A DNA stretch of 64,000 nt from a virus (lineage: Duplodnaviria > Heunggongvirae > Uroviricota > Caudoviricetes): IMG/VR virus record IMGVR_UViG_3300042997_001281, positions 181,394 to 245,393 of that record; one strand, 5' to 3'. Every line of letters starts with the position of its first letter. Position 1 is the stretch's first letter. Below, one piece after another: positions 41,869 through 64,000 of the stretch. The translations under genes and the position numbers were made by a program. The notes beneath the pieces were generated by a model. That model saw only the letters and a program-made list of their open reading frames with translations, made no database searches and was not told where the DNA came from.

Positions 41869-42046
41869 TTCAAGTTCATCAGGGGGGATAGGTTTCTTCG
41901 GACTGATGTTTTTAATTTTCATGACCCTTAAACTTACGGGTTTTATTGATTGGTCTTGGTGGTGGGTAACCGCACCTTTGTGGGGTGGTTTTGCGCTCAT
42001 TATTCTATTCATCATATTCGTAATGATAATTAAATCCTTAGACTAA
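41855..42046 (+). CDS. Small membrane protein
   Basis: Two TM segments (FFGLMFLIFMTL; LWGGFALIILFIIFVMII). Confidence 0.35.
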   Translation: MSNSNSSSSGGIGFFGLMFLIFMTLKLTGFIDWSWWWVTAPLWGGFALIILFIIFVMIIKSLD

Positions 42047-42672
42047 TGTTATATGTATCAATTGATATCGAAACATCAGGTTTAAATCCTGATATGAACA
42101 ATGTCCTATCTATCGGTGCAATCATCGAAGACACCACTAAGAAATTACCTTACGAGGAACTACCCAAGTTCAACGCAATAGTAATTCAAAACAATATTCA
42201 AGGTTCACCAAGAGCAATCACTATGAATAGTAACATTATCTCTATGATGGGTGAATATCTTGAGGGTAAAGATGAAGTTAGAGAACTATTAAATAATAAT
42301 AGTGGATATAAATTTTATACTGAAGATGAAGTTGTAAAAGAATTCTATTATTTCTTAATCAATAATGGGTATGGGGATGGTTTTATACTGGTAATTAATG
42401 GACAAACTAAACCAATTACAATCAATGTTGCCGGAAAGAACTTTGGTACCTTTGACAAGTTATTCTTAGAAGAGTTGCCGTGGTGGAAGAAATTAATAAG
42501 AACTCGTTCGAGAATAATCGACCCATCAATTTTATTTGTTGATTGGTCAAATGATGAGGCAATTCCCTCACTAACTAAATGTAAAGAACGAGCCAACATT
42601 GAAGGTATTGTTACGCACAATGCACTTGAGGATGCGTGGGACGTAATTGAATTATTAAGAAAGAACTATTAA
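42046..42672 (+). CDS. DEDDh 3'-5' exonuclease (DnaQ/oligoribonuclease-like)
   Basis: SIDIETSGL (Exo I) and HNALEDAWD (Exo III, H-x4-D). Confidence 0.7.
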   Translation: MLYVSIDIETSGLNPDMNNVLSIGAIIEDTTKKLPYEELPKFNAIVIQNNIQGSPRAITMNSNIISMMGEYLEGKDEVRELLNNNSGYKFYTEDEVVKEFYYFLINNGYGDGFILVINGQTKPITINVAGKNFGTFDKLFLEELPWWKKLIRTRSRIIDPSILFVDWSNDEAIPSLTKCKERANIEGIVTHNALEDAWDVIELLRKNY

Positions 42673-47261: not shown

Positions 47262-47996
47262 ATGAGTTTTACATTTTACGAAGTTGGGGGAAAAGTAAGG
47301 GACGAAATCTTGGGGTTAACATCTAAAGATGTGGATTATGTTGCAGTACCCACCCAATCTTTATTGGATTTATACACTGAGGCGGAGGATATGTTCACGG
47401 TTTTACACTATTATCTTGTCTCTGAAAAGTTTGAAATATTCTTGGAAACACCATCATGTTTCACCATTAGAGCACGGTTCCCTGAGGGACACCGTTACCA
47501 AGGTGTTGCAGACTTCGTAATGGCTCGAAAGGAAGTTGGATACATAAGTGGTACCCGAATACCTATCGTTAAACCAGGGACCTTATATGACGATTTAGAA
47601 CGTAGGGATTTTACATTGAACGCGTTGGCAAAAGACGGTGATGGGAATATCATAGATTACTTTAATGGGATTGAGGATTTAAAGAGAGGGTATCTTCGTA
47701 CACCATTACCATGTACCGATACATTTGATGACGACCCACTTCGTATTCTGAGAGCAATCAGGTTCTGTATAACCAAAGGATTTTGGATAGGACCGGCGAT
47801 GGATAGTATTATGCAAGATTATGATTATGTTGGTAAGATGGGTGTTGTATCAACTGAAAGAATTAGAGAGGAATTATTCAAATGTTTTAAACACGATACC
47901 GTTAAAACATTGAAGACATTACATGAATACCCAGCATTAAGGAACTACATCTTCAAAGATAATACTCTTTGGTTAAAACCAACAATGGAACAATAG
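47262..47996 (+). CDS. cca: tRNA nucleotidyltransferase (CCA-adding enzyme or poly(A) polymerase head domain)
   Basis: FYEVGGKVRDEILGLTSKDVDYV (GG.VRD…D.D) and RRDFTLNALA (RRDFTINA signature). Confidence 0.85.
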   Translation: MSFTFYEVGGKVRDEILGLTSKDVDYVAVPTQSLLDLYTEAEDMFTVLHYYLVSEKFEIFLETPSCFTIRARFPEGHRYQGVADFVMARKEVGYISGTRIPIVKPGTLYDDLERRDFTLNALAKDGDGNIIDYFNGIEDLKRGYLRTPLPCTDTFDDDPLRILRAIRFCITKGFWIGPAMDSIMQDYDYVGKMGVVSTERIREELFKCFKHDTVKTLKTLHEYPALRNYIFKDNTLWLKPTMEQ

Positions 47997-52576: not shown

Positions 52577-53449
52577 ATGATTATCAAAAGTTTATCACCG
52601 GAATGGAAAGTTTGGATTTGGACAAACGTAGTAAATGGTTTAGGTAAAGAAAATATCTTTAACGTATTATTAAATCATGGATTTGAATATGATTTAATTT
52701 CTAAAGAATTAGATATGACACCTTCAAATCCTTTGATACAAAAAAGAAAGGATACCCAAGTAGCCCTTAATGAAACACCACCATTTACCATTCAACCTCT
52801 CTATAAACCGTTGTGTGATAACTCAGGTGTTTATAGAATCGAGACTGAGTTTTTGGAAATTTATACAATACCAAACTTCTTATCGGGTGAAGAATGTGGG
52901 GAGTTAATAGAACAGATGGTTGGTAAGTTGAGACAATCAACAGTGGTTACAAATACTAATGTTGAAGACGTTAGAACCAGTTCAACCTGTGATATGTTTT
53001 TAGATAATCCAATCTATAAATCCGTAAATGATAAGATACATTCGTTTATGAAATTACCCCACGAGTTGGGTGAAATACCACAAGGTCAGAAGTATCTAGT
53101 TGGTCAACAATTTAAAGAACACGGTGATTATTTTGATGAGAATTACGAACCCAATAAAGTGGGGTTAGTTAATCTTGGTCAAAGAACGTGGACATTCATG
53201 GTTTATCTTAATGATGTGGAAGAGGGTGGTGAAACACACTTCACAAAAATCGATAAAACATTAATTCCGAATACCGGAACTGCCGTTGTTTGGTCTAATA
53301 TTTTAAGAAATGGAAAACCAAATGAATACGCAAAACATTGCGGACTACCGGTTATCTCGGGTGAAAAAAACATCATCACTAAATGGTTTAGAGAAGGTCC
53401 TAAAATTATAAATTCACCACAAGAAATAACTTTAAAAGAAATATTATAA
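52577..53449 (+). CDS. Prolyl 4-hydroxylase-like 2OG-Fe(II) oxygenase
   Basis: KEHGDYFDE (HxD), TWTFMVYLNDVEEGGETHF, AKHCGLPV (distal His) and KNIITKW (2OG-binding Lys). Confidence 0.62.
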   Translation: MIIKSLSPEWKVWIWTNVVNGLGKENIFNVLLNHGFEYDLISKELDMTPSNPLIQKRKDTQVALNETPPFTIQPLYKPLCDNSGVYRIETEFLEIYTIPNFLSGEECGELIEQMVGKLRQSTVVTNTNVEDVRTSSTCDMFLDNPIYKSVNDKIHSFMKLPHELGEIPQGQKYLVGQQFKEHGDYFDENYEPNKVGLVNLGQRTWTFMVYLNDVEEGGETHFTKIDKTLIPNTGTAVVWSNILRNGKPNEYAKHCGLPVISGEKNIITKWFREGPKIINSPQEITLKEIL

Positions 53450-53460
53450 ATCTACATACT

Positions 53461-54180
53461 ATGAACCGTAAAGAAAAATTAACCAAATCTTTAATGGGTG
53501 CAATCAGAGCACTTGAAAATGGAACAGTAATTTACAATTGGCAGGAACAAGAAAGTTGTAACTGTGGTGTTGTATCTCAAGCAATGTTAGGGATAACAGG
53601 TACCGAGTTGAAACAACGACTTAAAGATGAGGATATCTTTACACACTCAATCTTTGAGAAGGTTAAAGATAAACCTGAGGTGGCAAAAACTTGGAAGAGC
53701 CTTATAAGTGCATGGTGCCCAATAACGGGAGTACCAATGAAACAGATTTTCGACGATTTAAACGATGCTGGATTAACTACTGATGACATCGCACACTTAG
53801 AGTATTTGGAAAATTCCGCAATATTAAAACGTTCAGGGATATCTACCCATCATAAAGTAACAACTGAAGTATTTGACCATTACGATTATATCCCAGTTAA
53901 TACTTTCTTCGGTAGATTGTTTGGAAGAACCAAAATGGTTGAAGTGAAGAAAATGGTTACCACAACCACTCAAGACCACAACTACTATTCTAAAAAGGGG
54001 AATGTTATTCTTTATTTGAAGGCGTGGGTTTCCATTCTACAAGAAGAAAGAGAACCAATTCAAGAAGATTTATCTGGAGAATCAAAACAGGAACTCCAAG
54101 AGAGATTACTCATTGCGGTTGCAGATGAGAACTATGAAATGGCCGCGAAACTTAGAGATGAGTTAGTTATTTCTCATTAA
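53461..54180 (+). CDS. Hypothetical protein with a C-terminal UVR (UvrB/UvrC-type) motif
   Basis: ELQERLLIAVADENYEMAAKLRDEL. Confidence 0.45.
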   Translation: MNRKEKLTKSLMGAIRALENGTVIYNWQEQESCNCGVVSQAMLGITGTELKQRLKDEDIFTHSIFEKVKDKPEVAKTWKSLISAWCPITGVPMKQIFDDLNDAGLTTDDIAHLEYLENSAILKRSGISTHHKVTTEVFDHYDYIPVNTFFGRLFGRTKMVEVKKMVTTTTQDHNYYSKKGNVILYLKAWVSILQEEREPIQEDLSGESKQELQERLLIAVADENYEMAAKLRDELVISH

Positions 54181-54199
54181 TATCTTCATCCACAATTTT

Positions 54200-54760
54200 T
54201 TATAATAATCTAAATTTTTTTATTGCTGATACATCCCAAATGCAACCAGAATTTGCATCAATGGTATATGCCCAATAATATTCTTTTGATTCTTGATGTA
54301 AATTTCTAACACCAATCTCTTCATAATTTGGAAACTCGATACCTTTATATTTTTTTGAAACTAAATCCCAATTAATATTGTGTGGATAATTTTGGTGTGT
54401 ACTATATTTTTCTGTAAACTCTTTAAATAAATCTTCTGTATTCAGAATCATAATTTCACTCATATCTAAATATAATTTATAAATATAAACCTCACTATTC
54501 ATCACACCCTTTAATGGTACGTTTTCCTTGGTATCCCAAGTAACACCATATTTTTTAAAATTAATCCAATTATCACCGAATCCATACCATAAACCTCCCG
54601 GTTTTCCGTGAACATCTTGATTTTTAACTCCGTTTTCAATTTTATCAATTGGTGTTTTACTTAGATGAATTCTTTCTTGACTACCTAATTCCAATCTTTC
54701 ATTCACAAAATGTTTAAAGTTTTTTACTTTATCAATCATTTTACGTATATCTCCACCCAT
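54200..54760 (-). CDS. Hypothetical protein on the minus strand
   Basis: ORF of 186 aa that is co-oriented with the next gene. Confidence 0.5.
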   Translation of the reverse strand: MGGDIRKMIDKVKNFKHFVNERLELGSQERIHLSKTPIDKIENGVKNQDVHGKPGGLWYGFGDNWINFKKYGVTWDTKENVPLKGVMNSEVYIYKLYLDMSEIMILNTEDLFKEFTEKYSTHQNYPHNINWDLVSKKYKGIEFPNYEEIGVRNLHQESKEYYWAYTIDANSGCIWDVSAIKKFRLL

Positions 54761-54847
54761 AATTTTTTATTTATATATAAATATCACCGCCCCTATATTG
54801 AGAACACCACCAATATTACATAGATTTATTCGGAAAATATAAATAAA

Positions 54848-55252
54848 TTAACCTTCCCACACTCCCGATTCGGTGATTACAGGACTACCATTCCTGTCAA
54901 TCATAACCCATTCTGCCTTTACCATACCGAAAGGTTCAAAACACTTTAATACGGTACCCAAGTTAAAACATTTACAACTGTAGATGTCAAACTGTGCCAT
55001 TGGTAACTCATAATGGTCCCAAATGTGTATTGACCCGTGTGATGTGGCTAATGTTACGGTTCCCGTTAACCCCTCATTACCTGGGTCGGATACATAGACA
55101 CTGGTTGGCCCAGCAACTACCCTCATTCCAACCGAATCTACGAGGTGTATAAACCATTTATTTAGTTGTTCTTCCTTCTTAGGAGGATTAGTCATCCAAC
55201 ACTTTAATAATAGGTGTTGATGATAGGGTTCAAATACTTCTATTTTGTCCAA
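54848..55252 (-). CDS. Pyruvoyl-dependent S-adenosylmethionine decarboxylase-like proenzyme (SpeH class)
   Basis: HQHLLLKCW … TGTVTLATSHGSIHIWDHYELPMAQFDIYSC aligns with the class-1a AdoMetDC [28 protein letters not shown], including the Ser of the cleavage site. Confidence 0.62.
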   Translation of the reverse strand: MDKIEVFEPYHQHLLLKCWMTNPPKKEEQLNKWFIHLVDSVGMRVVAGPTSVYVSDPGNEGLTGTVTLATSHGSIHIWDHYELPMAQFDIYSCKCFNLGTVLKCFEPFGMVKAEWVMIDRNGSPVITESGVWEG

Positions 55253-55309
55253 TGTTATAAGTTTTTATAATCCATATATATACCGATTTTGAAAAAAATC
55301 AGGGTATTA

Positions 55310-55341
55310 TTTGGAATATTCAAAATAATCTTTTATATTTG
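55310..55341 (+). promoter_or_regulatory. Phage promoter with the conserved palindromic -33 element
   Basis: TTTGGAATATTCAAAA-N8-TATATTTG, with the ATG at 55347. It lies in a divergent region with the minus-strand gene pair. Confidence 0.6.
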
Positions 55342-55346
55342 GAACA

Positions 55347-55556
55347 ATGTTAGTAGTCTTCAACATAGTGATTGGAATTATATGGGGTCTCTATATTTTA
55401 GGGTCACTCATCAAGAAGGATTGGAACGATTTTCTTTATGGTATCTGCATGGCGTTAGTGATGTTTTTACCAATACCAGCACAGCAAAGTATAATCGTAA
55501 TGATATTGTTAATTATTGTACATAGATACATAGATAGAAAAGAAAGAGAATCTTAA
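55347..55556 (+). CDS. Small membrane protein with 2-3 TM segments, holin-like in size
   Basis: 69 aa and very hydrophobic. Confidence 0.4.
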   Translation: MLVVFNIVIGIIWGLYILGSLIKKDWNDFLYGICMALVMFLPIPAQQSIIVMILLIIVHRYIDRKERES

Positions 55557-56281
55557 TGAAAAAAAGTGAAGAATTGAAAGGTATACTATCAGGTATAGTT
55601 AACGAGATTGAGAACGATTGGAACAGTAAAGAGAGAGAATCATTTACGATGACCAAGTTCTTAGAATTACCATGGTTGAAAGACGGTCAATTCTACATTG
55701 AAGATAAGAAGAATAAAGACGAATTAAAAAACTTCTATTTCAAATACGACCACAGTGTATTCACCTCCGATAAATTGGGCGGTGGATACTTTGTTATTCA
55801 CGAACCATTCGGAAGTAAGTCATCTCCTGATTATTTGTTCGTAACACCAAATGGAATCTTTGGTATTGAAGATAAATCTAACAACGAAGAAAAGATAGAG
55901 TGGAACACCGGTTCACCGGGAGAAGATAAAATCATTACGTTCTTCCACAAATCAGAAAAGAAAGTTTATTTGTTTACCAGTTGGGAATACGGGTGGACTA
56001 AAGAGATTGGTGACGAGTACTATCAATTTAAAATCAAAATTAAAGAGATGGCGTCCGAGTTATTCAAAGAACAGTTTCACAAGTACGGTGATTCATTTAA
56101 GAAGTTAACATACTACGCCCGACCACACATAATTGACGGGAATAATATTGTTAGAGACATCTATGACCCCGAAGAGATTAATGTAAAGAGAGTATTGGAG
56201 AAGTTCTTAGATGGTGAGGAACACAAACCAATCAGTAGGTATAGAAGAGCAATGGAATACATACAAGGAAAACTATTTTAA
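55556..56281 (+). CDS. Hypothetical protein
   Basis: ORF of 241 aa. Confidence 0.5.
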   Translation: MKKSEELKGILSGIVNEIENDWNSKERESFTMTKFLELPWLKDGQFYIEDKKNKDELKNFYFKYDHSVFTSDKLGGGYFVIHEPFGSKSSPDYLFVTPNGIFGIEDKSNNEEKIEWNTGSPGEDKIITFFHKSEKKVYLFTSWEYGWTKEIGDEYYQFKIKIKEMASELFKEQFHKYGDSFKKLTYYARPHIIDGNNIVRDIYDPEEINVKRVLEKFLDGEEHKPISRYRRAMEYIQGKLF

Positions 56282-56282
56282 A

Positions 56283-56978
56283 ATGAAAAAAATTGAAGCG
56301 TTATTAATTTCAGATGTTCACCTCGGTTCAAAGGGATGTAATGCTGAAGAGGTCCTTGAGACCTTAAAAAAATATCAACCGGAATACCTTTTCTTGGTTG
56401 GTGACATAATTGATGGTTGGTTATTAAAAAAGAGATTTTACTGGAAACAATCTTACACCAACTTAATAAGAAAAATTCTATCCTATTCAAAAAATGGTAC
56501 GAAAGTAATTTACATCACTGGTAATCATGATGAGTTCTTGAGGGATTATGATGACTTATCATTTGGGAATATCGAATTTCACAATGAATACATTTACAAA
56601 GATATTTTCATCACACATGGAGACCTATATGATGGTGTTGTAAAATTAAAATGGTTGGGTGTTCTTGGTTCCGTCGGTTACGATTTGGCAATTGTAGTTG
56701 ATAGATACCTTAAAAGATTGGGGTTTAAACGTTCTTTATCTAAGTTCTTAAAGGATAAAGTAAAGGAGGCGGTTAAATTCATCACATCCTTTGAGGACCA
56801 AATAGTTTACCAAGCGAAAAAAAGAAACTGTACCAAAGTTGTCTGTGGGCATATTCATCATCCCATAATAAAAGTCATCGACGATATTGAATACGTCAAT
56901 TGCGGTGACTGGATAGAAAATAATTCATATATAATTTATAACAATGGCAAATTCACAAAACACTTCAATAAAAAATAA
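56283..56978 (+). CDS. Calcineurin-like metallophosphoesterase (LpxH/SbcD-like topology)
   Basis: LLISDVHLG, LVGDIIDGW, ITGNHDEF and THGD. ATG at 56283. Confidence 0.7.
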   Translation: MKKIEALLISDVHLGSKGCNAEEVLETLKKYQPEYLFLVGDIIDGWLLKKRFYWKQSYTNLIRKILSYSKNGTKVIYITGNHDEFLRDYDDLSFGNIEFHNEYIYKDIFITHGDLYDGVVKLKWLGVLGSVGYDLAIVVDRYLKRLGFKRSLSKFLKDKVKEAVKFITSFEDQIVYQAKKRNCTKVVCGHIHHPIIKVIDDIEYVNCGDWIENNSYIIYNNGKFTKHFNKK

Positions 56979-57681
56979 CCTTACAATCGTTATCCCAACA
57001 TATAACGAAGCAAATTACATTGAGCGTACATTACATTCAATACATAACCAAACCGGTATACGGGGAACAAGAGTGATAATTGCGGACAATCATAGTAATG
57101 ATGGAACTCGAAAGGTAATTAAAAAACAATCATTCTTTTATCAGAAGAAACTAAAGATAGAATTGATTGATGGGGGTACCGTATCAGTTGGTCGAAACAA
57201 TGGGGCAAAATTGGTTGATACCAAATATATCTTATTCATTGACGGTGATGTAATTTTAGATGACTCCCATACCATTAAAAATACATTAAATGAAATGGAA
57301 GAGAGGGAATTACAACTATTAACCTGTAAATTAGAATCATATGGTAATGATTTTAGAACTTCACTTATGTTTAAAATGTTTAATATCGTGAATTACTTTG
57401 TTAGTAAGGTCACCCCCTTTGCAGTTGGAACCTATTTCATGGTTGATAGAAAGATGTTTAATCTTTTCGGTGGGTTTGATGAAACATTAAATCACTCTGA
57501 GGATTATGTATTGAGTAAGAAGTTTTACCCCGAAAACTTTAAAATTTCAAATCACTATATTGGTCAAGATGATAGGAGGTTTAAAAAGATGGGGTATTTT
57601 GGTATGATTAAGTTACTCATTAAGAGTTACAGAAACAGGGGCAATAACGATTTCTTTAAAAAAGATGTGGGTTATTGGTAA
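56944..57681 (+). CDS. Glycosyltransferase family 2
   Basis: LTIVIPTYNEANYIERTL…ADNHSNDGT and ILFIDGDVIL (DxD). Confidence 0.68.
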   Translation: MANSQNTSIKNNLTIVIPTYNEANYIERTLHSIHNQTGIRGTRVIIADNHSNDGTRKVIKKQSFFYQKKLKIELIDGGTVSVGRNNGAKLVDTKYILFIDGDVILDDSHTIKNTLNEMEERELQLLTCKLESYGNDFRTSLMFKMFNIVNYFVSKVTPFAVGTYFMVDRKMFNLFGGFDETLNHSEDYVLSKKFYPENFKISNHYIGQDDRRFKKMGYFGMIKLLIKSYRNRGNNDFFKKDVGYW

Positions 57682-57685
57682 ACAA

Positions 57686-57719
57686 TTTGGAATATTCGGA
57701 AAAATTTCTTATCCTTTAT
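57686..57719 (+). promoter_or_regulatory. Phage promoter with the conserved palindromic -33 element
   Basis: TTTGGAATATTCGGAA followed by TTATCCTTTATA, with the ATG at 57734. Confidence 0.5.
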
Positions 57720-57733
57720 AAAAATAAACCATC

Positions 57734-58033
57734 ATGGATAGTAACATTCAAGTACACGAACACCTACATTCATACATAAAGTTTTCGGATGTATCGATTA
57801 GTTTTGCGGATAGACTTTTTTTCGTAACCGTTAAACAACAAGGATTTAGTGGTAAGGATTATGTTAAAGATTATTTGGAGACGAATGGTTTTACCCACCA
57901 AAGTAATGGTATCTACGCGAGGTTTAAGAATCGTGCCGGTGAGTACATATCGCAACAGTCATTCGACAATGAAAACAACTATCGGATAAGAGAAGATATG
58001 GTGGAAAGAGTGTTGGATAGAATACCTAAGTAG
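57734..58033 (+). CDS. Hypothetical protein
   Basis: ORF of 99 aa. Confidence 0.45.
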   Translation: MDSNIQVHEHLHSYIKFSDVSISFADRLFFVTVKQQGFSGKDYVKDYLETNGFTHQSNGIYARFKNRAGEYISQQSFDNENNYRIREDMVERVLDRIPK

Positions 58034-58035
58034 AT

Positions 58036-58968
58036 ATGTCAAGATTAGATAAGTTAAAAGAACAACATCCGGAATTAAATGTTTCACTGATTGACATTAT
58101 TGCATCAGTTGAACCATCAGAGACCTACAAGTATATGGGGTTTCTTATCAAGATACTCAAAAACGAGTACTATAAGAAGGGAGATGTTCAGGCGTTACAT
58201 AGGAGTATAGTAATTAAACTATTCGAATATGAAAATTTGGCATTACTTATTGATTTTGAAAAACATTCTCGAGCAAACCGTTTGAGTAATCCCGACATTA
58301 GTCATTATAAAAATTTTAATGACATCAAGAAGGAAGTAAACCGAGCGGATGATGTTGTTAAACTAAAGGAACTTGAGAAACAGGTTAAGAAATTATATGA
58401 AACCGATTTTTGGTTGGTTATAATTCCATTATCATTTGAGGCATCAAAGATGTATGGTGCAAATACGAAGTGGTGTACAACCCAGGAGAGACATTGGGAC
58501 GATTACAAATCAAAATACAAATTGATTTACATCATCAATAAGAAGAGTAATGTAAAATATGCGGTATCATCTTCAACAACCGAAGATAAAGTACAGGGAT
58601 GGTTGGCCAACGACAAGGAAAGTAATCCAATGTTATGGTCAATACCAAATGAAGTTATGGGTGTGTTGATTGAGGAGGTTAAAAAAAGAGAGTCAGTTAT
58701 TGAATTGGCAAAAAACCATGGAATCGCGGTAACCATACAACAAAGTAAAAAACAAAATGCACCATTACCTCCACATTTTCGTGATGATATTGATATTGAT
58801 GATGTTAGAAGAATTGCCAATGAATTAAATCAAGAACAACAATATCAAGAACGAAATGAAGGACTTCAATGGCAGGAAAGAATTAGGGTTGAGGAAATAA
58901 TGAGAAGATTAGATGATGAAACAAACCGAGCATCGGAAATTTATGATAATGACTCGTTACCTTTTTAA
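58036..58968 (+). CDS. Hypothetical protein, family A paralogue 2
   Basis: WLVIIPLSFEASKMYGANTKWCTTQERHWDDY is paralogous to the gene at 42683. Confidence 0.55.
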   Translation: MSRLDKLKEQHPELNVSLIDIIASVEPSETYKYMGFLIKILKNEYYKKGDVQALHRSIVIKLFEYENLALLIDFEKHSRANRLSNPDISHYKNFNDIKKEVNRADDVVKLKELEKQVKKLYETDFWLVIIPLSFEASKMYGANTKWCTTQERHWDDYKSKYKLIYIINKKSNVKYAVSSSTTEDKVQGWLANDKESNPMLWSIPNEVMGVLIEEVKKRESVIELAKNHGIAVTIQQSKKQNAPLPPHFRDDIDIDDVRRIANELNQEQQYQERNEGLQWQERIRVEEIMRRLDDETNRASEIYDNDSLPF

Positions 58969-59091
58969 AATATTATGGATACAATAGATAGATTATTAGA
59001 AATCATTGAGTCGTTGAAGGACTTCGACACATGGAAAGAATTTAAAAATGACCCTGAATGGGTTGCTAACAAATTAAAAGAATAAAATATT

Positions 59092-59274
59092 ATGGAAACA
59101 GAATCTATATTGGGCACAATTTCACAGTACAGTAGTTACAGTGGATTAACGTTTGATGAAATCATATCGGGTAATTTAATAAAAACGTGGGGTAAAATAA
59201 ATGAAGAAGGAGAACTCGAAACAAAAACTGAGGTTGACTTACTTTCAGATAAACTAAACGAACTAAGAAAATAA
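59092..59274 (+). CDS. Small hypothetical protein
   Basis: ORF of 60 aa. Confidence 0.35.
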   Translation: METESILGTISQYSSYSGLTFDEIISGNLIKTWGKINEEGELETKTEVDLLSDKLNELRK

Positions 59275-59275
59275 T

Positions 59276-59458
59276 ATGTTAACAGTAACATTTTTAAACA
59301 TTATTGGTTGGGTATTTTTATTATCGATGTGGGTGTTGGTTGATAACATTAAAAACCGCAAGGTTCGATTTATTGTTAGAATGGTATTTGGTGGAATCGC
59401 GTTAGTTTCATTCATTGCGGCGTTATCAATACAGATTGGTGAACAGATTGGTCAATAA
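59276..59458 (+). CDS. Small membrane protein
   Basis: Two TM segments. Confidence 0.35.
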   Translation: MLTVTFLNIIGWVFLLSMWVLVDNIKNRKVRFIVRMVFGGIALVSFIAALSIQIGEQIGQ

Positions 59459-59464
59459 AACAAC

Positions 59465-59737
59465 ATGAGAATAAAACACACATTATTATTGATGGTTGTT
59501 ATAGTAACACTATCAAGTTTTAAGGATGTTCCAAAAGAAAAAACAAAGGTTAAACCAAAATCGTGCACTGGTCTGATTACATATGTTATGACATTTCAAT
59601 GGAATGATAGTGTGGTTGTTGGATTGATGTTGGAGGATAGGAAAGAAATTGTAATTAAAACAAAAATAAAGGGTTACACTCCGGTGGTGAATGAACTTTA
59701 TAAATTTGATTGTGAATTAATGCCTAAAGTAAAATGA
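59465..59737 (+). CDS. Small secreted protein
   Basis: N-terminal signal-like segment (MRIKHTLLLMVVIVTLSSF). Confidence 0.4.
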   Translation: MRIKHTLLLMVVIVTLSSFKDVPKEKTKVKPKSCTGLITYVMTFQWNDSVVVGLMLEDRKEIVIKTKIKGYTPVVNELYKFDCELMPKVK

Positions 59738-59848
59738 AAGATAAAATTTTAGCAACACTATTAGTGTTGGGTAGTATATCTTTGATGTGTTACTTAATGA
59801 TTGAATTTGTTTCATGGTTATTCCGTGGAATCTAAAAATAAAAAAAAT

Positions 59849-60184
59849 ATGGAAAAGAAATTAGGTAAAATCGAATTGGTACAATTTGGTCTTGGTGGTT
59901 ATCAAGATTCTCAACTTGGATTATCTATCACTCTTGGTGATGGTGGTTGGGCAGTTGGAGACTTCAAGGGTAATTGGGACGCTGAATCAATTAAGTGGAG
60001 TGAACACTGTAAGTGGACAGAAGAAGATAGGGATAAAGGATACTCAGAAACTATGAGGTTCCTTTCTAAACTTCTTAAAGACGCGAAGGTACGTAGTGTT
60101 GATAAACTAAAAGGTATTCCCGTTGAAGTAATATTTGATGGTAACGTATTAAAAGAGTGGAGAGTATTAACCGAAGTATTATGA
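59849..60184 (+). CDS. Hypothetical protein
   Basis: ATG at 59849. The listed ORF starts at an upstream TTG. Confidence 0.45.
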   Translation: MEKKLGKIELVQFGLGGYQDSQLGLSITLGDGGWAVGDFKGNWDAESIKWSEHCKWTEEDRDKGYSETMRFLSKLLKDAKVRSVDKLKGIPVEVIFDGNVLKEWRVLTEVL

Positions 60185-60390
60185 AAAATAAAAACAACAC
60201 TATAACTGTTGAGTTAAGCGACGAGCAACAAAATAAATTTAATGAGTGGAAATCACATATCAAGGCAATCTATGGTGAGTGCGGACTACTCACATGGAAA
60301 GTAACCCCTACGGGTATTGGTAGTGAAATTGTTGTGTACAGTCATAACACAAAAACAGAATTAGATTTAACAGACTTAGATAATTGGTAA
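60181..60390 (+). CDS. Small hypothetical protein
   Basis: ATGA overlap with the upstream gene. Confidence 0.4.
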   Translation: MKNKNNTITVELSDEQQNKFNEWKSHIKAIYGECGLLTWKVTPTGIGSEIVVYSHNTKTELDLTDLDNW

Positions 60391-60647
60391 TGAAAAAAAT
60401 ATTAGGATTATTATTGGCGGGTGTTCTATTAACAGGATGTTACAAGGACCCACAATCATCAACAACAGAGGGTAATGGATTCCAAGTTGAGTTTCTATTC
60501 GAGAAGGATGGTATAAAGATGTACCGATTCTTTGATGGGGGTAAACATCATTACTTCACAACAACCGGTGAAACAATTAACGCTCAACATTATGGTAAAA
60601 CCAAATATGATGAGAACATTAAAATGAATTCAACGGACAATTTTTAA
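60390..60647 (+). CDS. Small lipoprotein
   Basis: MKKILGLLLAGVLLTGCYKD contains an L-T-G-C lipobox. Confidence 0.5.
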   Translation: MKKILGLLLAGVLLTGCYKDPQSSTTEGNGFQVEFLFEKDGIKMYRFFDGGKHHYFTTTGETINAQHYGKTKYDENIKMNSTDNF

Positions 60648-60650
60648 ACT

Positions 60651-60920
60651 ATGAAACTAAAAATTCAATTAAGCGAAGGGTTTCACACATGGATTCTAAA
60701 GAAATCAATTGAGATTGACACGGATAACTATCCTGAACTTCAGGGTATGGAAGAAGAACAGGTGCTGGAATACCTAAAAGAGAATTCAGATAATATGAGT
60801 TTCAACGATGGTGAAAAAACATATGATGACTGGACACTACATGACGAGTTGGTAGACCAAGAACCTTTATTCAATAAGGAAAAGAATTACGCAACCGACA
60901 TTCATCTTGATGGAAAATAA
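60651..60920 (+). CDS. Small acidic hypothetical protein
   Basis: ORF of 89 aa. Confidence 0.4.
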   Translation: MKLKIQLSEGFHTWILKKSIEIDTDNYPELQGMEEEQVLEYLKENSDNMSFNDGEKTYDDWTLHDELVDQEPLFNKEKNYATDIHLDGK

Positions 60921-61017
60921 TATGATAATCGTTGAACACATATTGACATTTTTAATTGTCTACGGAATCGTGGGGGTTATACTCCTATGGTTCAAATCAA
61001 AAAACATTGAAGAATAA

Positions 61018-61049
61018 TTTGGAATATTCTAAATAACCTATTATATTTG
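61018..61049 (+). promoter_or_regulatory. Phage promoter with the conserved palindromic -33 element
   Basis: TTTGGAATATTCTAAA-N8-TATATTTG, with the ATG at 61054. Confidence 0.6.
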
Positions 61050-61053
61050 TGCC

Positions 61054-61683
61054 ATGAAAAAAGTTTACTTAACCGAAGATGATTATAATTTTATCCATAA
61101 AATGGGTAGGTTAAGGCAACAATACCCCAATGATTATTCTTTTAGTAAAGATAGTAGAGTTGGTGATATTGGTGAAAAAATTATTATTCAACTATTAATT
61201 GATTATGGTTGGACTATTATATCATGTTTTAGAACTAACTTACCGACTGGTGAATTAAAGAAATTTGACATTGTTGCCAGTAAGTATGGGAAAATAAGAA
61301 AATTTGAAGTAAAATTAGACTTGAAGGCATACCCCGGTAAATATGAAAGGGTATTAAAAATGCAACATTTTGAGAGGCAATTATCTGCCGATAAAGATAC
61401 AGGTAATGGGTTTATAGAAATTTCATGCGAAGATGAAAATGGTATACAACAAGATTCTGGAGTTATTGCTACGACCTCAGATTATTTTATCACTATATAC
61501 GTTTTTATTGGTGAAATTTGGATTAATACTCCAATAAGGATAATAAACCTTGCCAAAGAACATATTTGGTCCGTCGTTTCCGGTGGTAACCTTAAAAAAA
61601 CTCGTGGATGGCTCTTTAAACGGGAATATTTTGAAAAATTTTTTAAAATTAAAAAATTTGAATTAAAAATAAACGACGAGTAA
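61054..61683 (+). CDS. Hypothetical protein, possible PD-(D/E)xK-type fold
   Basis: FDIVAS…EVK spacing is suggestive only. Confidence 0.45.
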   Translation: MKKVYLTEDDYNFIHKMGRLRQQYPNDYSFSKDSRVGDIGEKIIIQLLIDYGWTIISCFRTNLPTGELKKFDIVASKYGKIRKFEVKLDLKAYPGKYERVLKMQHFERQLSADKDTGNGFIEISCEDENGIQQDSGVIATTSDYFITIYVFIGEIWINTPIRIINLAKEHIWSVVSGGNLKKTRGWLFKREYFEKFFKIKKFELKINDE

Positions 61684-61743
61684 CATTTTGATGAACAAAA
61701 AAATATTTTTTTGTTTTTAGAATATATTGATTATCTTTGTGCC

Positions 61744-62133
61744 ATGAAAAAATATACACACATACCTCAGATTATGATTGATTTGATTGAAAACAGTGAT
61801 GTCAGATTAAAATCTCCAATTGATATTGATGATATCTTTGAAGTTGGGAATAAAATATTATCCAAAGGTAAAGACGAATCCGAATTTACCGAATCTGAAC
61901 ATACTTGGTTTGGTTTATTAAACTCTTTAATGCTCTATTCATTAAATTATCAAATGAAGAACGATTCTAAGTCACTTGAAAGTATGTACCAACTTTTCAA
62001 AAGTGGTGCACATCACGAATTATCGGATAATGAAAGTGACAAAAACATATTTGAAAAGATGGTTATTGATAATTTAATTGAATCTGAGGAGTATGAGAAG
62101 GTGGTAGAATTAAAGAAGAATAAGAAAAAATAG
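61744..62133 (+). CDS. Hypothetical protein
   Basis: ATG at 61744 follows TATCTTTGTGCC, the same start context as the gene at 61054. Confidence 0.45.
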   Translation: MKKYTHIPQIMIDLIENSDVRLKSPIDIDDIFEVGNKILSKGKDESEFTESEHTWFGLLNSLMLYSLNYQMKNDSKSLESMYQLFKSGAHHELSDNESDKNIFEKMVIDNLIESEEYEKVVELKKNKKK

Positions 62134-62255
62134 TCAGGTGGCGGAATTGGTTAAACGCTGTGTATGCTCGATTAGACACCAGTACGAGGCAGTGAAAATC
62201 CTGCACGTAGGGCTTAGAAAACTGGTTATAGGTTCGATTCCTGTCCTGACTACGC
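62129..62255 (+). repeat. Direct repeat copy 1, at least 125 bp and identical to 63874-64000
   Basis: Exact identity over the whole tRNA-like element, with copies offset by 1745 bp. Confidence 0.9.
62132..62252 (+). ncRNA. tRNA-like element of atypical length (about 121 nt) with an acceptor stem, a T-arm and no encoded CCA
   Basis: AGTCAGG(62132-38)/CCTGACT(62245-51) form a 7-bp acceptor. ATAGG-TTCGATT-CCTGT is a T-arm (GGTTCGAnTCC). GCG-GAATTGGTTAAA-CGC is a D-arm-like segment. About 70 nt lie between the D-arm and the T-arm, which is too long for a canonical tRNA. Confidence 0.4.
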
Positions 62256-62436
62256 GATTCGGTTAATCACCGGATAGTATGTCCAATACGATGAGAAGTG
62301 AGGTGATTCCTCATATGGAACTGCTAATAGGACAAGGTTCTATTTAGATTGACTATCTAATTTAAATAAGTTTATTCCTAACCTAGCAATAGGGACAGCC
62401 TTAACACCTGTAGTTGGATAAAATAGGGTGTTATAT

Positions 62437-62515
62437 AGTCAGGTGGGCGTAATGCGGGATGGTGCCCAAGTCCAATAAAATGGTTGTTTATCCGGTTCGA
62501 GTCCGGCCCTGACTA
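62437..62515 (+). tRNA. Probable tRNA (79 nt, anticodon unresolved by eye, no encoded CCA)
   Basis: Same acceptor stem AGTCAGG/CCTGACT as element 1. The T-arm is CCGG-TTCGAGT-CCGG and a D-region GGCG…TGCC is present. Confidence 0.4.
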
Positions 62516-62704
62516 CAATTAACAAAGTACCATAGGTACAATTAACAAAAGCCAATAGGCTTAAGCATTTAAAGGCGTGTAATGTCCAGTCTTTTAATGA
62601 ATTAACTGGACAAAGTGCATGAAACGTTACTAAAAATTTATACAAACATTTAACAAGCACCAAAAAAACATTTAACAAATTATATAACTTAAACAACAAA
62701 CAAA

Positions 62705-63097
62705 ATGGAAAAAGAATTTATGCCATACCAAGAAGCATTAGCTTTAAAAGAATTAGGATTTGATGAACCTTGTTTTGGTAGATATTGTATTGTTACCGAA
62801 TGGGAAGAGCCAACTGGTGAAATACTAATACAAATGTTTGATTCTAATTTATTAGAAAAGAATCTTATTAAAGCCCCAATTTACCAACAAGTATTTAGAT
62901 GGTTTAGAGAAGAATATAGATTAACAGGATTAATTGAAGTTGGTACTCAAGAGTTTTCTTATCTAATTATTAATGATAAATGGAATAGACTATGTGGAAC
63001 TGAACCTTTAAAATTTAATGGTACTTATAAAGAAGCAGAGCTTGAGTGTATTAAAAAACTGATTGAGATTGTAAAACTTAAACAACAAACAAAATGA
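62705..63097 (+). CDS. Hypothetical protein
   Basis: ORF of 130 aa. The leader AACAACAAACAAAATG is shared with the two downstream genes. Confidence 0.45.
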   Translation: MEKEFMPYQEALALKELGFDEPCFGRYCIVTEWEEPTGEILIQMFDSNLLEKNLIKAPIYQQVFRWFREEYRLTGLIEVGTQEFSYLIINDKWNRLCGTEPLKFNGTYKEAELECIKKLIEIVKLKQQTK

Positions 63098-63312
63098 AAA
63101 AACAAACAGCAGTAAGATTTATTGAATTAAAATTATTAGGATTAGTATCTTTTGATTCAGAAGAATTAAGGAAAATGTATAAAGATATTCTTTTACAAGC
63201 CAAAGAAATGGAGAAGCAACAAATCATCAATTGCTATAATCAATCGTGGCATTTTAGAGATAAGCCATACGAAACAGCAGAAAAATACTACAACGAAACA
63301 TTTGGAAAATAA
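63094..63312 (+). CDS. Small hypothetical protein, paralogous to the gene at 63449
   Basis: Shared C-terminus …(E/Q)(K/Q)YYNETFGK. Confidence 0.4.
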   Translation: MKKQTAVRFIELKLLGLVSFDSEELRKMYKDILLQAKEMEKQQIINCYNQSWHFRDKPYETAEKYYNETFGK

Positions 63313-63448
63313 CTTAAATAACAAAAAAACTTATGGAACACGCTTATTATTGGGTAACTACATTTATACAACTAATCATAATGATTATTTTAGGTGGTAT
63401 TTATGAAGAATTAAAAAAGAAATAGAAAACATTTAAACAACAAATAAA

Positions 63449-63688
63449 ATGGAAAAACAAAAAAGCAGTATAGAATGGTTAATATCTGAATTGAAACGAA
63501 GAATTTTAATAATAGAATCTGAACCAGATGGAATTGTTAGAACAACAATGATAGATAATTTTTTAGTGGATGTTGACGAAGCCAAAGAAATGCACAAGCA
63601 GGAGATAATGAATGCTTACAAATTTGGCATTTCAGATGAATATGTAATTGGCTCTCAACAATACTACAACGAAACATTTGGAAAATAA
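63449..63688 (+). CDS. Small hypothetical protein, paralogous to the gene at 63094
   Basis: Shared C-terminus …QQYYNETFGK and a similar leader. Confidence 0.4.
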   Translation: MEKQKSSIEWLISELKRRILIIESEPDGIVRTTMIDNFLVDVDEAKEMHKQEIMNAYKFGISDEYVIGSQQYYNETFGK

Positions 63689-63711
63689 TTTCTAATTTTA
63701 GCCTTATGGTG

Positions 63712-63850
63712 GAAAAAATAGGCGCAAAGCAAGAAAAATAGGCGCAATGATGGAATAAAAATCTATATTTGAAAATGTTCACAAAACTTGAACAATGGAA
63801 TAAAATGAACGCCATATTGGTGGTATCAACGAAATGGTATAGGCGCAATA
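63712..63850. repeat. Iteron-like repeat cluster in a non-coding region
   Basis: GAAAAAATAGGCGCAA twice (63712, 63733) plus TATAGGCGCAATA (63838), and ATGGAATAAAA twice (63750, 63795). Confidence 0.6.
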
Positions 63851-63873
63851 ACTTCCATTTTTAATAGAACGCT

Positions 63874-64000
63874 AATAGTCAGGTGGCGGAATTGGTTAAA
63901 CGCTGTGTATGCTCGATTAGACACCAGTACGAGGCAGTGAAAATCCTGCACGTAGGGCTTAGAAAACTGGTTATAGGTTCGATTCCTGTCCTGACTACGC
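63874..64000 (+). repeat. Direct repeat copy 2, the second copy of the long tRNA-like element, truncated by the window end
   Basis: Identical to 62129-62255. Confidence 0.9.

Follow-up and report, generated by a model that had tools for sequence, protein, structure and literature searches.

A putative phage family of tRNA-like RNA genes with a constant tRNA-Leu-derived frame and exchangeable inserts, represented in the genome of an uncultured member of the Caudoviricetes

The window analysed here, a stretch of 64,000 nt from an uncultured phage (Caudoviricetes; positions 181,394 to 245,393 of the IMG/VR record IMGVR_UViG_3300042997_001281), carries at its end three tRNA-like elements: two identical copies of a 121-nt element (element 1), which form the core of a direct repeat, and between them a 79-nt element (element 2). 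Four small open reading frames (ORFs) and a block of GGCGCAA repeats lie between element 2 and the second copy of element 1 (Table 1). An initial annotation of this DNA had pointed out the elements from the sequence of the window alone. The comparison with other phage genomes revealed that they are one instance of a very large family, beyond the reach of any reading of a single window, in which a nearly invariant tRNA frame (the scaffold) surrounds a hypervariable insert (the payload).

Table 1. Features of the window that are discussed in the text. R1, covariance model of the family.
Feature	Position	Strand	Remarks
Element 1, copy A	62132..62252	+	121-nt tRNA-Leu-derived tRNA-like RNA gene (putative); R1 65.3 bits; ARAGORN negative
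Parts of element 1, copy A			acceptor 62132-62138 with 62245-62251; discriminator A 62252; D-arm 62141-62158; payload ~62159-62227; T-arm 62228-62244
Element 1, copy B	63877..63997	+	identical to copy A; family site downstream of the GGCGCAA block; Rfam tRNA 37.3 bits; R1 65.3 bits
Element 2	62437..62515	+	79-nt tRNA-like RNA gene (putative) without anticodon arm; R1 37.8 bits, E ~3.5e-7
Direct repeat, left copy	62129..62255	.	127 bp exact; element 1 plus 3 nt on either side
Direct repeat, right copy	63874..64000	.	cut by the window edge
Long bulged hairpin of the element 1 payload	62178..62226	+	outer helix 62178-62182 with 62222-62226, includes CCAGU/ACUGG; constrained fold
Inner hairpin of the element 1 payload	62183-62209	+	8-nt loop UGAAAAUC
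Unpaired 12-nt segment of the element 1 payload	62210-62221	+	GGGCUUAGAAAA
Spacer between elements 1 and 2	62253..62436	+	184 nt, non-coding; no ORF of at least 60 aa on the + strand
Three exact ATAGGCGCAA repeats	63718..63848	+	starts 63718, 63738, 63839; kept region upstream of family site B
Small-gene cassettes	62689..63688	+	ORFs 62705-63097 (130 aa), 63094-63312 (72 aa), 63333-63425 (30 aa), 63449-63688 (79 aa)
Minimal class II tRNA nucleotidyltransferase gene	47262..47996	+	244 aa; PF01743 62.8 bits; PHROG 24229 E=8e-61; below NCBIfam equivalog cut-offs

The tRNA likeness of both elements, their common acceptor stem and the lack of an encoded CCA, all of which the initial annotation had noted, hold true with small corrections of the coordinates. 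Element 1 has a 7-bp acceptor stem (AGTCAGG/CCTGACT) followed by the discriminator A, a T-arm of the sequence ATAGGTTCGATTCCTGT and the overall layout AGUCAGG-UG-GCG GAAUUGGUUAAA CGC-...-AUAGG UUCGAUU CCUGU-CCUGACU-A. The same acceptor and discriminator are found in element 2, where the T-arm (CCGGTTCGAGTCCGG; CCGG-UUCGAGU-CCGG) has a stem of 4 bp plus a U/C mismatch and a GG-loop hairpin is present; a D-arm and a T-arm were counted as present in both elements. All three elements have a T at position -1 and a C at position +1, and since the next bases are CGC and CAA, respectively, C74 is encoded whereas the complete CCA is not. The duplication of element 1 with a spacing of 1745 bp is exact as well, the two copies of the repeat being identical over 127 nt.

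The initial annotation had proposed covariance models and ARAGORN as checks of the tRNA likeness. ARAGORN called neither a tRNA nor a tmRNA in the whole window. The Rfam tRNA model matched the second copy of element 1 above its gathering score of 29, skipping a 59-nt insert at the place of the anticodon arm. The identical first copy was not reported even with E values up to 10, and neither was the identical copy in the closest relative of the window (L001:9428-9548; L numbers denote contigs and loci of our comparison set). This represents a filter effect and not a difference between the copies; cmscan reported only the copy at the end of the searched sequence, and tRNA-like genes with long inserts can drop out at the speed filters of the program. 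The covariance model R1, which was built from 50 family members and from which both window elements had been left out, recovered both copies of element 1 (E ~5e-14) and element 2 with the scores given in Table 1, and the next match in the window reached 17 bits. This weak match (42010-42098; 17.4 bits, E 0.04, GC content 26%) is probably due to chance.

Neither element contains an anticodon arm in the sense of a 5-bp stem with a 7-nt loop, U33 and a purine at position 37, and no Leu anticodon (NAG or NAA) in a canonical loop was found in them. With respect to the usual tRNA length of about 70-95 nt element 1 lies outside and element 2 inside the range. The fold of element 1 comprises the acceptor stem, a 3-bp D-stem of the Leu type, a weak hairpin of 4 bp whose loop has 8 nt, the long bulged hairpin and the T-arm. 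Unconstrained folds of the elements were no better than those of shuffled sequences (z -0.49 and -0.01), which is uninformative as it is for tRNAs in general. The stretch 62125-62570 as a whole (446 nt) folds better than its shuffles (z -2.15).

The family was encountered by a look-up of the 130-aa protein encoded between the two copies of element 1, which led to contigs carrying further elements with the same ends and differing middles. A scan of IMG/VR with the 22-nt 3' end GGTTCGANTCCTGTCCTGACTA yielded at least 120 contigs with at least 163 distinct elements (54-191 nt, up to six per locus), and a metagenome sample independent of the IMG/VR set added at least 88 contigs with at least 109 further elements, 82 of which have payloads unrelated to those of the first set. 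Overall the family occurs on more than 200 uncultured phage contigs, mostly from freshwater and associated with Bacteroidota, and its elements range from 38 to 249 nt. The contigs stem from Lake Mendota, the Experimental Lakes Area and lakes in Sweden and Finland, among others. The payloads form 173 unrelated groups among 193 elements of the first sample and 99 in the second, which amounts to more than 250 versions. Among 100 fetched loci R1 detected about 180 members, including arrays of 9-11; L018, for instance, holds nine members together with two ordinary tRNAs in approximately 3.8 kb of mostly non-coding DNA. An R1 match, the acceptor, a D-arm or its element 2 variant, the T-arm, a payload other than an anticodon arm, and U-1 together with C74, by which we propose to delimit the family, are all found in the elements of the window.

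Outside the viral data sets the 3' end was detected in 23 of 185,579 species genomes, nearly all of them contigs of metagenome-assembled genomes and almost all phage-looking; their commonest attribution, in about half of the cases, is to the Bacteroidota (Chitinophagia, Flavobacterium, Saprospirales). The possibility that a host tRNA shares this end was therefore dropped. No family member was detected among cultured phages (INPHARED and phage GenBank records) using the payload-less scaffold consensus as query. Neither the literature, which was also searched by sequence strings, nor Rfam yielded a description of the family, so that it appears to be undescribed. The sole match in the genome of an isolate, Hymenobacter montanus BT664 (L140:6762-6881), consists of the 3' 22-mer joined to the apparent 5' two-thirds of a tRNA-Arg(CCU)-like sequence and lacks the matching 5' acceptor strand. 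Recombination of a host tRNA gene with a family element could have left this arrangement as a scar.

Conservation among the members is limited to the tRNA frame. On the 5' side it comprises the acceptor strand A1-G7, U8, G9, G10 C11 G12, A14 A15 and G18 G19, on the 3' side U48, the T-arm ACAGG-UUCGAAU-CCUGU, the acceptor strand CCUGACU and A73, which is the usual discriminator. The D-arm and the discriminator are those of the phages' own tRNA-Leu genes. Deviations in the acceptor are of the wobble or compensatory type (GGUCAGG, AGUUAGG, AGUCAAA/UUUGACU, AGCCAAG/CUUGGCU, UGUCAGG/CCUGACA). The hypervariable payload replaces the region of the anticodon arm and of the long variable arm, and in a few members the D-loop carries an insert, too. 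Such an insert forms a hairpin in the 108-nt member of L008 and in L074, L034 and L088, and an additional T-arm-like hairpin (NNGGUUCGAUUCCNN) was observed in payloads of L137, L138, L045, L054, L031, L113, L120 and L034. These peculiarities suggest nested or chimeric elements. ARAGORN called 30 of 139 members with scattered anticodons, often of 2 or 4 nt; by inspection a canonical anticodon arm is present in occasional short members only, e.g. in the 71-nt member of L057 (loop CUUUUAA).

The genomic context resembles that of tRNA genes. Most of the members (148 of 163) are intergenic, 30% are located within 1 kb of a canonical tRNA gene, often inside tRNA arrays, and their orientation agrees with that of the canonical tRNAs in 388 cases and disagrees in 4. 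Position -1 is T in 81% of the members compared with 72% of the canonical tRNAs of the same loci, and position +1 is C in 99% of both, followed mostly by AA or TA. A CCA end is encoded in 4 of 152 members. No sign of mature, CCA-tailed transcripts was found in metagenome assemblies, the CCA of every match listed (at least 88) being internal genomic sequence. Considering tRNAs and members of L007 to L151 jointly, C74 is present in 99%, A76 is usual (~73%) and C75 is avoided (CAA or CTA instead of CCA). This unusual but consistent flank signature of C74 without C75 is perhaps tied to the needs of RNase Z or of the CCA-adding enzyme.

Evidence for selection at the RNA level comes from the pairing pattern. 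In the alignment of element 1 from the window with its counterparts in L007, L008 and L158, which contains 32 base pairs, 99.2% of the cells are paired. Five pairs have changed on both sides; the acceptor and the CCAGU/ACUGG helix of the payload account for two each and the D-stem for one. This number of compensatory pairs was reached by 7 of 500 shuffles, and slid controls gave 0-2. The payload helix, which the initial annotation had recognised (CCAGT...ACTGG; 62179-62183 with 62221-62225), covaries in the diverged L158, where its counterpart is CCGAU/AUCGG. The subfamily of element 2 comprises six diverged members with double-sided changes in 6 of 16 pairs; its consensus consists of the acceptor, the GG-loop hairpin, a short CC/GG contact and the T-arm, without an anticodon arm, and its invariant blocks are GCGUAAUG, UCC and GGUUG. 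Inspection furthermore revealed compensatory changes in five of six other payload clusters. Within these alignments, helices of the scaffold as well as of the payload are shown to be kept by compensatory substitutions.

Orthologous sites were compared between pairs of loci sharing both 200-nt flanks at 86-100% identity. Of the 60 comparisons, 39 revealed a differing family member and 20 the same one; in a single case the segment was of another kind, and no site was empty. Due to the lack of any empty site the insertion of a mobile element was rejected as an explanation. At one orthologous site, six contigs carry five unrelated payloads. The site 3' of the GGCGCAA block, which is occupied by element 1 in the window, is filled elsewhere by members of 94 nt (L001, L111), 85 nt (L152, L153, L091), 89 nt (L044, L121) and 102 nt (L002). 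The similarity of the window to L152/L153 ends about 20 nt into the scaffold, and the conserved ends of the elements are demonstrable as recombination breakpoints in such comparisons. The 68-nt payload of element 1, on the other hand, recurs with an identity of 100% in L008 and of 98.5% in L007, though the scaffolds differ at several positions.

Since orthologous sites hold differing members, the repeat in the window represents one member at two family sites. It is best read as the product of recombination or gene conversion across the conserved ends. The initial annotation had proposed a recombination cassette flanked by the pair of repeats; the recombinational part of this proposal agrees with the breakpoints at the conserved ends, whereas the pair does not flank a cassette, the same member being located at two sites that are filled otherwise in relatives. 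The closest relative, the 201-kb contig L001, is 100% identical to positions 52705-63306 of the window (10.6 kb) and runs on through the homologous region, about 5 kb past the fetched stretch; its second site holds other family members, and no repeat is present. A degenerate copy without T-loop was also observed in L001.

We read the elements of the window as non-decoding tRNA-like RNA genes of a phage family derived from tRNA-Leu (type II), in which a scaffold processed like a tRNA displays exchangeable structured RNAs, and assign this reading a probability of about 0.5. The RNAs would be cut from longer transcripts in the manner of tRNAs, with RNase P acting at U-1/A1, and would be trimmed at the 3' end to A73 or C74 prior to the completion of CCA by a phage or host nucleotidyltransferase. 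The tRNA frame would supply processing, folding and nuclease resistance, and the payload would be the working part, presumably by binding a host or phage factor as a structured RNA. Payloads would be exchanged by homologous recombination within the conserved ends of about 25 bp, probably under an arms race, and the same recombination or gene conversion would have placed the payload of element 1 at a second family site, thereby generating the 127-bp direct repeat. The engineered tRNA scaffold (PMC3753655) provides a precedent, since bacteria process and stabilise this tRNA body although another RNA takes the place of its anticodon arm. A tRNA-derived regulatory RNA or decoy, one of the explanations offered initially, points in the right direction in that the elements are non-decoding derivatives of tRNA-Leu.

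The phage itself may contribute to the maturation. The nucleotidyltransferase proposed at 47262 by the initial annotation is confirmed as to its family (PF01743, PHROG 24229), whereas its specificity for CCA is presumed only, since the protein is minimal and remains below the NCBIfam equivalog cut-offs. The protein is a candidate for the enzyme that finishes the CCA end of these RNAs. The window contains this gene but no canonical tRNA, the three tRNA-like elements being the sole candidate substrates in view.

Several points weigh against the proposed reading. The covariation was drawn from four to six sequences per subfamily only, and most members were found via an exact match to the 22-nt 3' end. 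The stability of the payloads does not exceed that of random segments of the same loci (z -0.48 versus -0.38, p=0.12). Antisense or spacer-like matches of payloads to their own or other phage DNA are absent, motifs or k-mers are not shared beyond shuffle expectation, no Rfam family is matched, and no protein partner recurs near the members. Furthermore, RNase P and RNase Z need no fixed acceptor sequence, and the near-invariance of the scaffold therefore wants an additional explanation, for which recombination-driven homogenisation or an as yet hypothetical sequence-specific reader are candidates. The sequence comparison shows a family of non-decoding RNA genes derived from tRNA-Leu and under selection at the RNA level, with a constant frame, structured payloads, the genomic context of tRNAs and an exchange of payloads; processing, payload role and exchange mechanism are deduced from it.

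Two more specific roles of the payload were considered and rejected. An origin as guide, antisense or spacer-like sequence is contradicted by equal lengths of sense and antisense matches within the loci, and no significant payload match outside family elements was detected in approximately 1.3 Mb of related phage DNA. A dedicated protein partner was dismissed since the best recurrent neighbour gene, which is of unknown function, is present at 18 of 120 loci. One payload subfamily (L011:787-892, L055 and the 103-nt member of L018) contains a conserved CACCUCCCCAAGG that resembles the anti-Shine-Dalgarno end of the 16S rRNA (CACCUCC).

Instead of the payload, the conserved frame might be the active part. 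Acceptor, T-arm and elbow with a CCA end would then act as a decoy or sponge titrating a tRNA-directed factor of the host, for instance a nuclease of a defence system, a toxin modifying the CCA end or a tRNA-processing or -binding enzyme, with the payload as filler. The top half and the elbow are the most conserved parts, the element 2 subfamily roughly corresponds to them without an anticodon arm, and several copies per genome would raise the dose. In addition, phage tRNAs are known to counter tRNA-targeting defences, as reported for the T5 tRNA-Tyr and retron Ec78 (bioRxiv 10.1101/2023.03.15.532788). However, filler would be expected to be short and drifting, whereas the payloads are long, 98-100% identical across phages while the scaffold changes, subject to compensatory changes and swapped as units at orthologous sites. 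Dosage alone hardly explains hundreds of differing payloads either, and a pure decoy seems unlikely. Similar objections concern a role in transcript punctuation, i.e. elements that mark neighbouring mRNAs for cleavage by RNase P and RNase Z and stabilise their 3' ends, as mitochondrial tRNAs do, with the excised RNA being idle. The intergenic members are co-oriented with their neighbours in 239 versus 40 cases and share no conserved promoter at a fixed upstream distance, and element 1 begins in the stop codon of ORF 61711-62133, a kind of overlap enriched among the members (7% compared with 2% in control frames). Nevertheless, with 7% of the members this overlap is a minority feature, for which reason a shared stop codon was rejected as general design; the conservation and covariation of the payloads as well as arrays of 9-11 members in mostly non-coding DNA would remain unexplained, and so would the question why an ordinary tRNA should not suffice. 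We regard punctuation as improbable. A function at the DNA level, with the elements being decaying tRNA pseudogenes or linkers that provide homology patches for module shuffling without any functional RNA, would account for scaffold ends as mosaic breakpoints, for the highly mosaic region with its gene cassettes in shuffled order and for the degenerate copy in L001. Decay would be uniform, however, whereas the observed conservation follows the tRNA architecture, acceptor, D-, T- and payload helices have changed by wobble or compensatory substitutions, which are sensible only for RNA, the flanks retain the processing signatures U-1 and C74, and no empty sites were seen, all of which render this explanation quite improbable. 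Decoy, punctuation and DNA linker each explain the constant frame, and each of them fails on the conservation, covariation and unit-wise exchange of the payloads.

The derivation from tRNA-Leu raises the question of charging. If the Leu identity set was kept for the leucyl-tRNA synthetase (LeuRS) of the host, the leucylated RNA might feed a non-ribosomal process or sequester LeuRS or EF-Tu. The identity of E. coli tRNA-Leu requires A73, A15:U48, G18G19 and contacts between D- and T-loop, and the family replaces exactly those parts that are dispensable for the E. coli enzyme (PMC9976931). Therefore leucylation of element 1, which has A73, A14 A15, G18 G19 and U48 and by sequence the whole Leu set including U8:A14, is conceivable. 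Across the family, however, the retention is partial (A14A15..GG 70-77%, U48 81-90%; 100% in the phages' own tRNA-Leu genes) and the discriminator is G in 27% of the members not chosen by exact pattern, and charging was therefore kept out of the main model. Element 2 has A73 but an A at position 48, a D-loop of the Leu type is missing from its subfamily, A1:U72 is an atypical first pair for a tRNA-Leu, and the identity rules of E. coli may not be those of the Bacteroidota, so that we give little credence to a charged carrier. Genuine decoding tRNAs that contain an intron or have a variable arm of exceptional length, which could be invoked on account of the Rfam match of the second copy and of the few short members with a canonical anticodon arm, are very unlikely: neither element 1 nor element 2 can form a 5-bp stem closing a 7-nt loop with U33, ARAGORN calls none in the window and scattered 2- or 4-nt anticodons among the members, and the inserts, which differ from member to member without relationship, fall short of group I introns, whose P1-P9 core exceeds 200 nt. 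The intron-containing or permuted tRNA considered in the initial annotation likewise has to be abandoned, as no anticodon stem-loop emerges after removal of any segment, no group I intron or other Rfam intron was matched (E up to 10), the insert in the window measures 59-68 nt, and relatives possess unrelated inserts by the hundred, which vary greatly in length. It is just as difficult to maintain that the repeat marks the end of the genome, an attachment site or an origin of replication in which GGCGCAA acts as iteron. The direct repeat of at least 127 bp does reach the end of the window, and three exact copies of ATAGGCGCAA precede it. A terminus is nevertheless unlikely in view of the continuation of the 201-kb contig L001 straight through the homologous region, with other members and no repeat at the second site; the GGCGCAA block precedes differing members in at least five contigs, and no integrase or replication gene is located nearby.

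Among known systems the canonical type II tRNA-Leu of phages is closest to the family, sharing the D-arm UGGCGGAAU(U)GGUAGACGC, U8, A14 A15, G18 G19, U48, the UUCGAnU T-loop and the discriminator A as well as the flanks (U-1, C74, no CCA), the strand and the arrangement in arrays. Canonical tRNA-Leu genes start with G1:C72 and have a phage-specific acceptor, whereas the family has A1:U72, a fixed acceptor, unrelated inserts without anticodon stem-loop and the wide length range given above. The design of the family, with acceptor, D- and T-arms kept and the anticodon arm replaced by a structured RNA, equals that of the engineered tRNA scaffold (Ponchon and Dardel; PMC3753655). The latter is a laboratory construct based on tRNA-Lys or tRNA-Met, while the family is natural, Leu-derived, phage-encoded, equipped with hundreds of payloads and known from its genes alone.

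In tmRNA, which is sometimes phage-encoded, the top half of a tRNA (acceptor, T-arm and a reduced D region) frames a big non-tRNA insert, too. The family differs in its third pair (U3:A70 instead of G3:U70), in lacking a tag frame and a pseudoknot series and in its far shorter inserts, which are non-homologous to one another; in the window ARAGORN found no tmRNA and the Rfam model gave an 11-bit chance match elsewhere only. A full-length tmRNA (Rfam 53.3 bits) was observed beside about 25 tRNA genes on a contig that also carries family members (L073:4975-5349). The bacterial Y RNA YrlA, which also occurs in some phages, resembles the family as a non-coding RNA with a mimic of the tRNA D/T elbow. 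Its ends reportedly form the Ro-binding stem, the tRNA-like module is said to be internal and the gene to lie beside rsr. In the family, by contrast, the ends form a plain acceptor stem at whose borders conservation stops, neither rsr nor another fixed neighbour was seen, and no Rfam Y-RNA was matched.

The species 1 and 2 RNAs of phage T4 (rnaC, rnaD) are stable single-copy RNAs of about 120-140 nt that are encoded in the tRNA cluster of the phage and matured by the tRNA machinery. As unexplained stable RNAs among phage tRNA genes they are similar to the family by description, and we know of no constant-scaffold family with exchangeable inserts to which they belong. Allo-tRNAs are said to retain an anticodon loop, making decoding possible. 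They resemble the family in their Ser/Leu-type long-arm bodies, their occurrence in metagenomes and phages and their many anticodon regions, and differ from its normal 7/5 configuration and its general lack of an anticodon loop by their reported 8/4 or 9/3 acceptor/T configuration (PMC5389517). The resemblance to the attC sites of integrons is restricted to short conserved inverted ends, a hypervariable centre, the vicinity of small gene cassettes and the function as recombination points. While attC acts as folded single-stranded DNA with IntI and has R'/R'' core sites, the conserved parts of the family are tRNA arms with selection for RNA pairing including G·U, and no integrase was found in the neighbourhood of the window elements or among recurrent neighbours.

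It is tempting to go one step further and to assume a natural display of RNAs on a tRNA scaffold in freshwater Bacteroidota phages, in which a Leu frame matured by the host carries a large and quickly traded repertoire of small structured payload RNAs acting as effectors in conflicts between phage and host or between phages, e.g. as aptamer-like inhibitors or decoys of defence proteins, and in which the scaffold ends serve as recombination handles. This extension is tentative and, in our view, rather doubtful. If true, the display system would be the RNA counterpart of hypervariable loci for anti-defence proteins.

Phage tRNA arrays are usually regarded as devices for codon usage or anti-defence, and viral tRNA mimicry is well known. 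In the family, however, one tRNA frame is reused hundreds of times for unrelated constrained inserts, in arrays of up to about ten per genome. Its kind, tRNA-like RNAs of viruses and bacteria, is a known one; the modular exchange of payloads is unusual and possibly important. If expressed, the elements would make up an extensive and so far unexplored group of phage non-coding RNAs that bring their own maturation signal, and would be a natural precedent for the tRNA-scaffold trick in RNA engineering. Since ARAGORN calls none of them here and the Rfam filters missed an identical copy, such regions of phage genomes are left blank as intergenic or mis-called as odd tRNAs. Furthermore, the family provides a testable case of short conserved ends of RNA genes driving the mosaicism of phage genomes.

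The iteron-like repeats upstream of the second copy of element 1, which the initial annotation had connected with a possible origin, are real. Allowing one mismatch, ATAGGCGCAA has 5 matches in the window compared with 0.99 expected, a number that none of 100 shuffles reached. In several phages, however, the GGCGCAA block is conserved on the upstream side of one family site, where it precedes differing members in L001, L152, L153, L121 and L044, and an origin structure is therefore not supported. A regulatory or promoter-associated role may be considered for it.

Each of the small ORFs between element 2 and this block is preceded by a leader of the form TTAAAYAACAAA...ATG. The shared leader TTAAACAACAAAYAAAATG had been noted correctly; it occurs in the window only at 62689, 63078 and 63433, before the ORFs of 130, 72 and 79 aa, and a related leader precedes the fourth ORF (30 aa). 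Contigs in 111 index blocks encode the 130-aa protein with 100% identity, in differing phage backgrounds (the window, L002-L006, L111, L154-L157). No Pfam family was matched by the proteins of the small genes, their only match being a PHROG of unknown function. The order of the cassettes differs between related contigs, and the small genes with their shared leader look like a set of mobile mini-cassettes.

Within the non-coding spacer between elements 1 and 2, its start (62253-62320, approximately 65 nt) and partly its end, too, are kept 3' of other family members in two unrelated contigs (L085:94-157; L106:424-460 and 574-617; BLAST against the fetched loci). The spacer may thus contain a further RNA module or a processing signal. 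Directly 3' of element 2 (62514-62559) a tandem 23-nt unit TACAATTAACAAA is accompanied by the short hairpins GUACC-AUA-GGUAC and, further on, AGCC-AAUA-GGCU, which do not represent classical terminators since no T-run follows.

At the DNA level the window matches 'huge phage' records only, and its large ORFs match phage families including thymidylate synthase, glycosyltransferases and PHROGs of unknown function. ORF 61054-61683, two genes upstream of element 1, has a weak match to a PD-(D/E)XK endonuclease (PF11645, 21.6 bits, below the cut-off). In L001 two family elements are directly followed, about 100 nt past the homologue of the window end, by a gene of the Thg1 family (L001:11393-12310; PF04446 97 bits, PHROG 4717 E 3e-84), i.e. 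a 3'-5' polymerase similar to tRNA-His guanylyltransferase, with genes for NAMPT and a nucleoside 2-deoxyribosyltransferase coming next. This Thg1 gene of L001 is not a general neighbour of the elements. The vicinity of an enzyme for the editing or repair of tRNA 5' ends to RNAs with an unusual A1:U72 first pair may nevertheless be more than coincidence.

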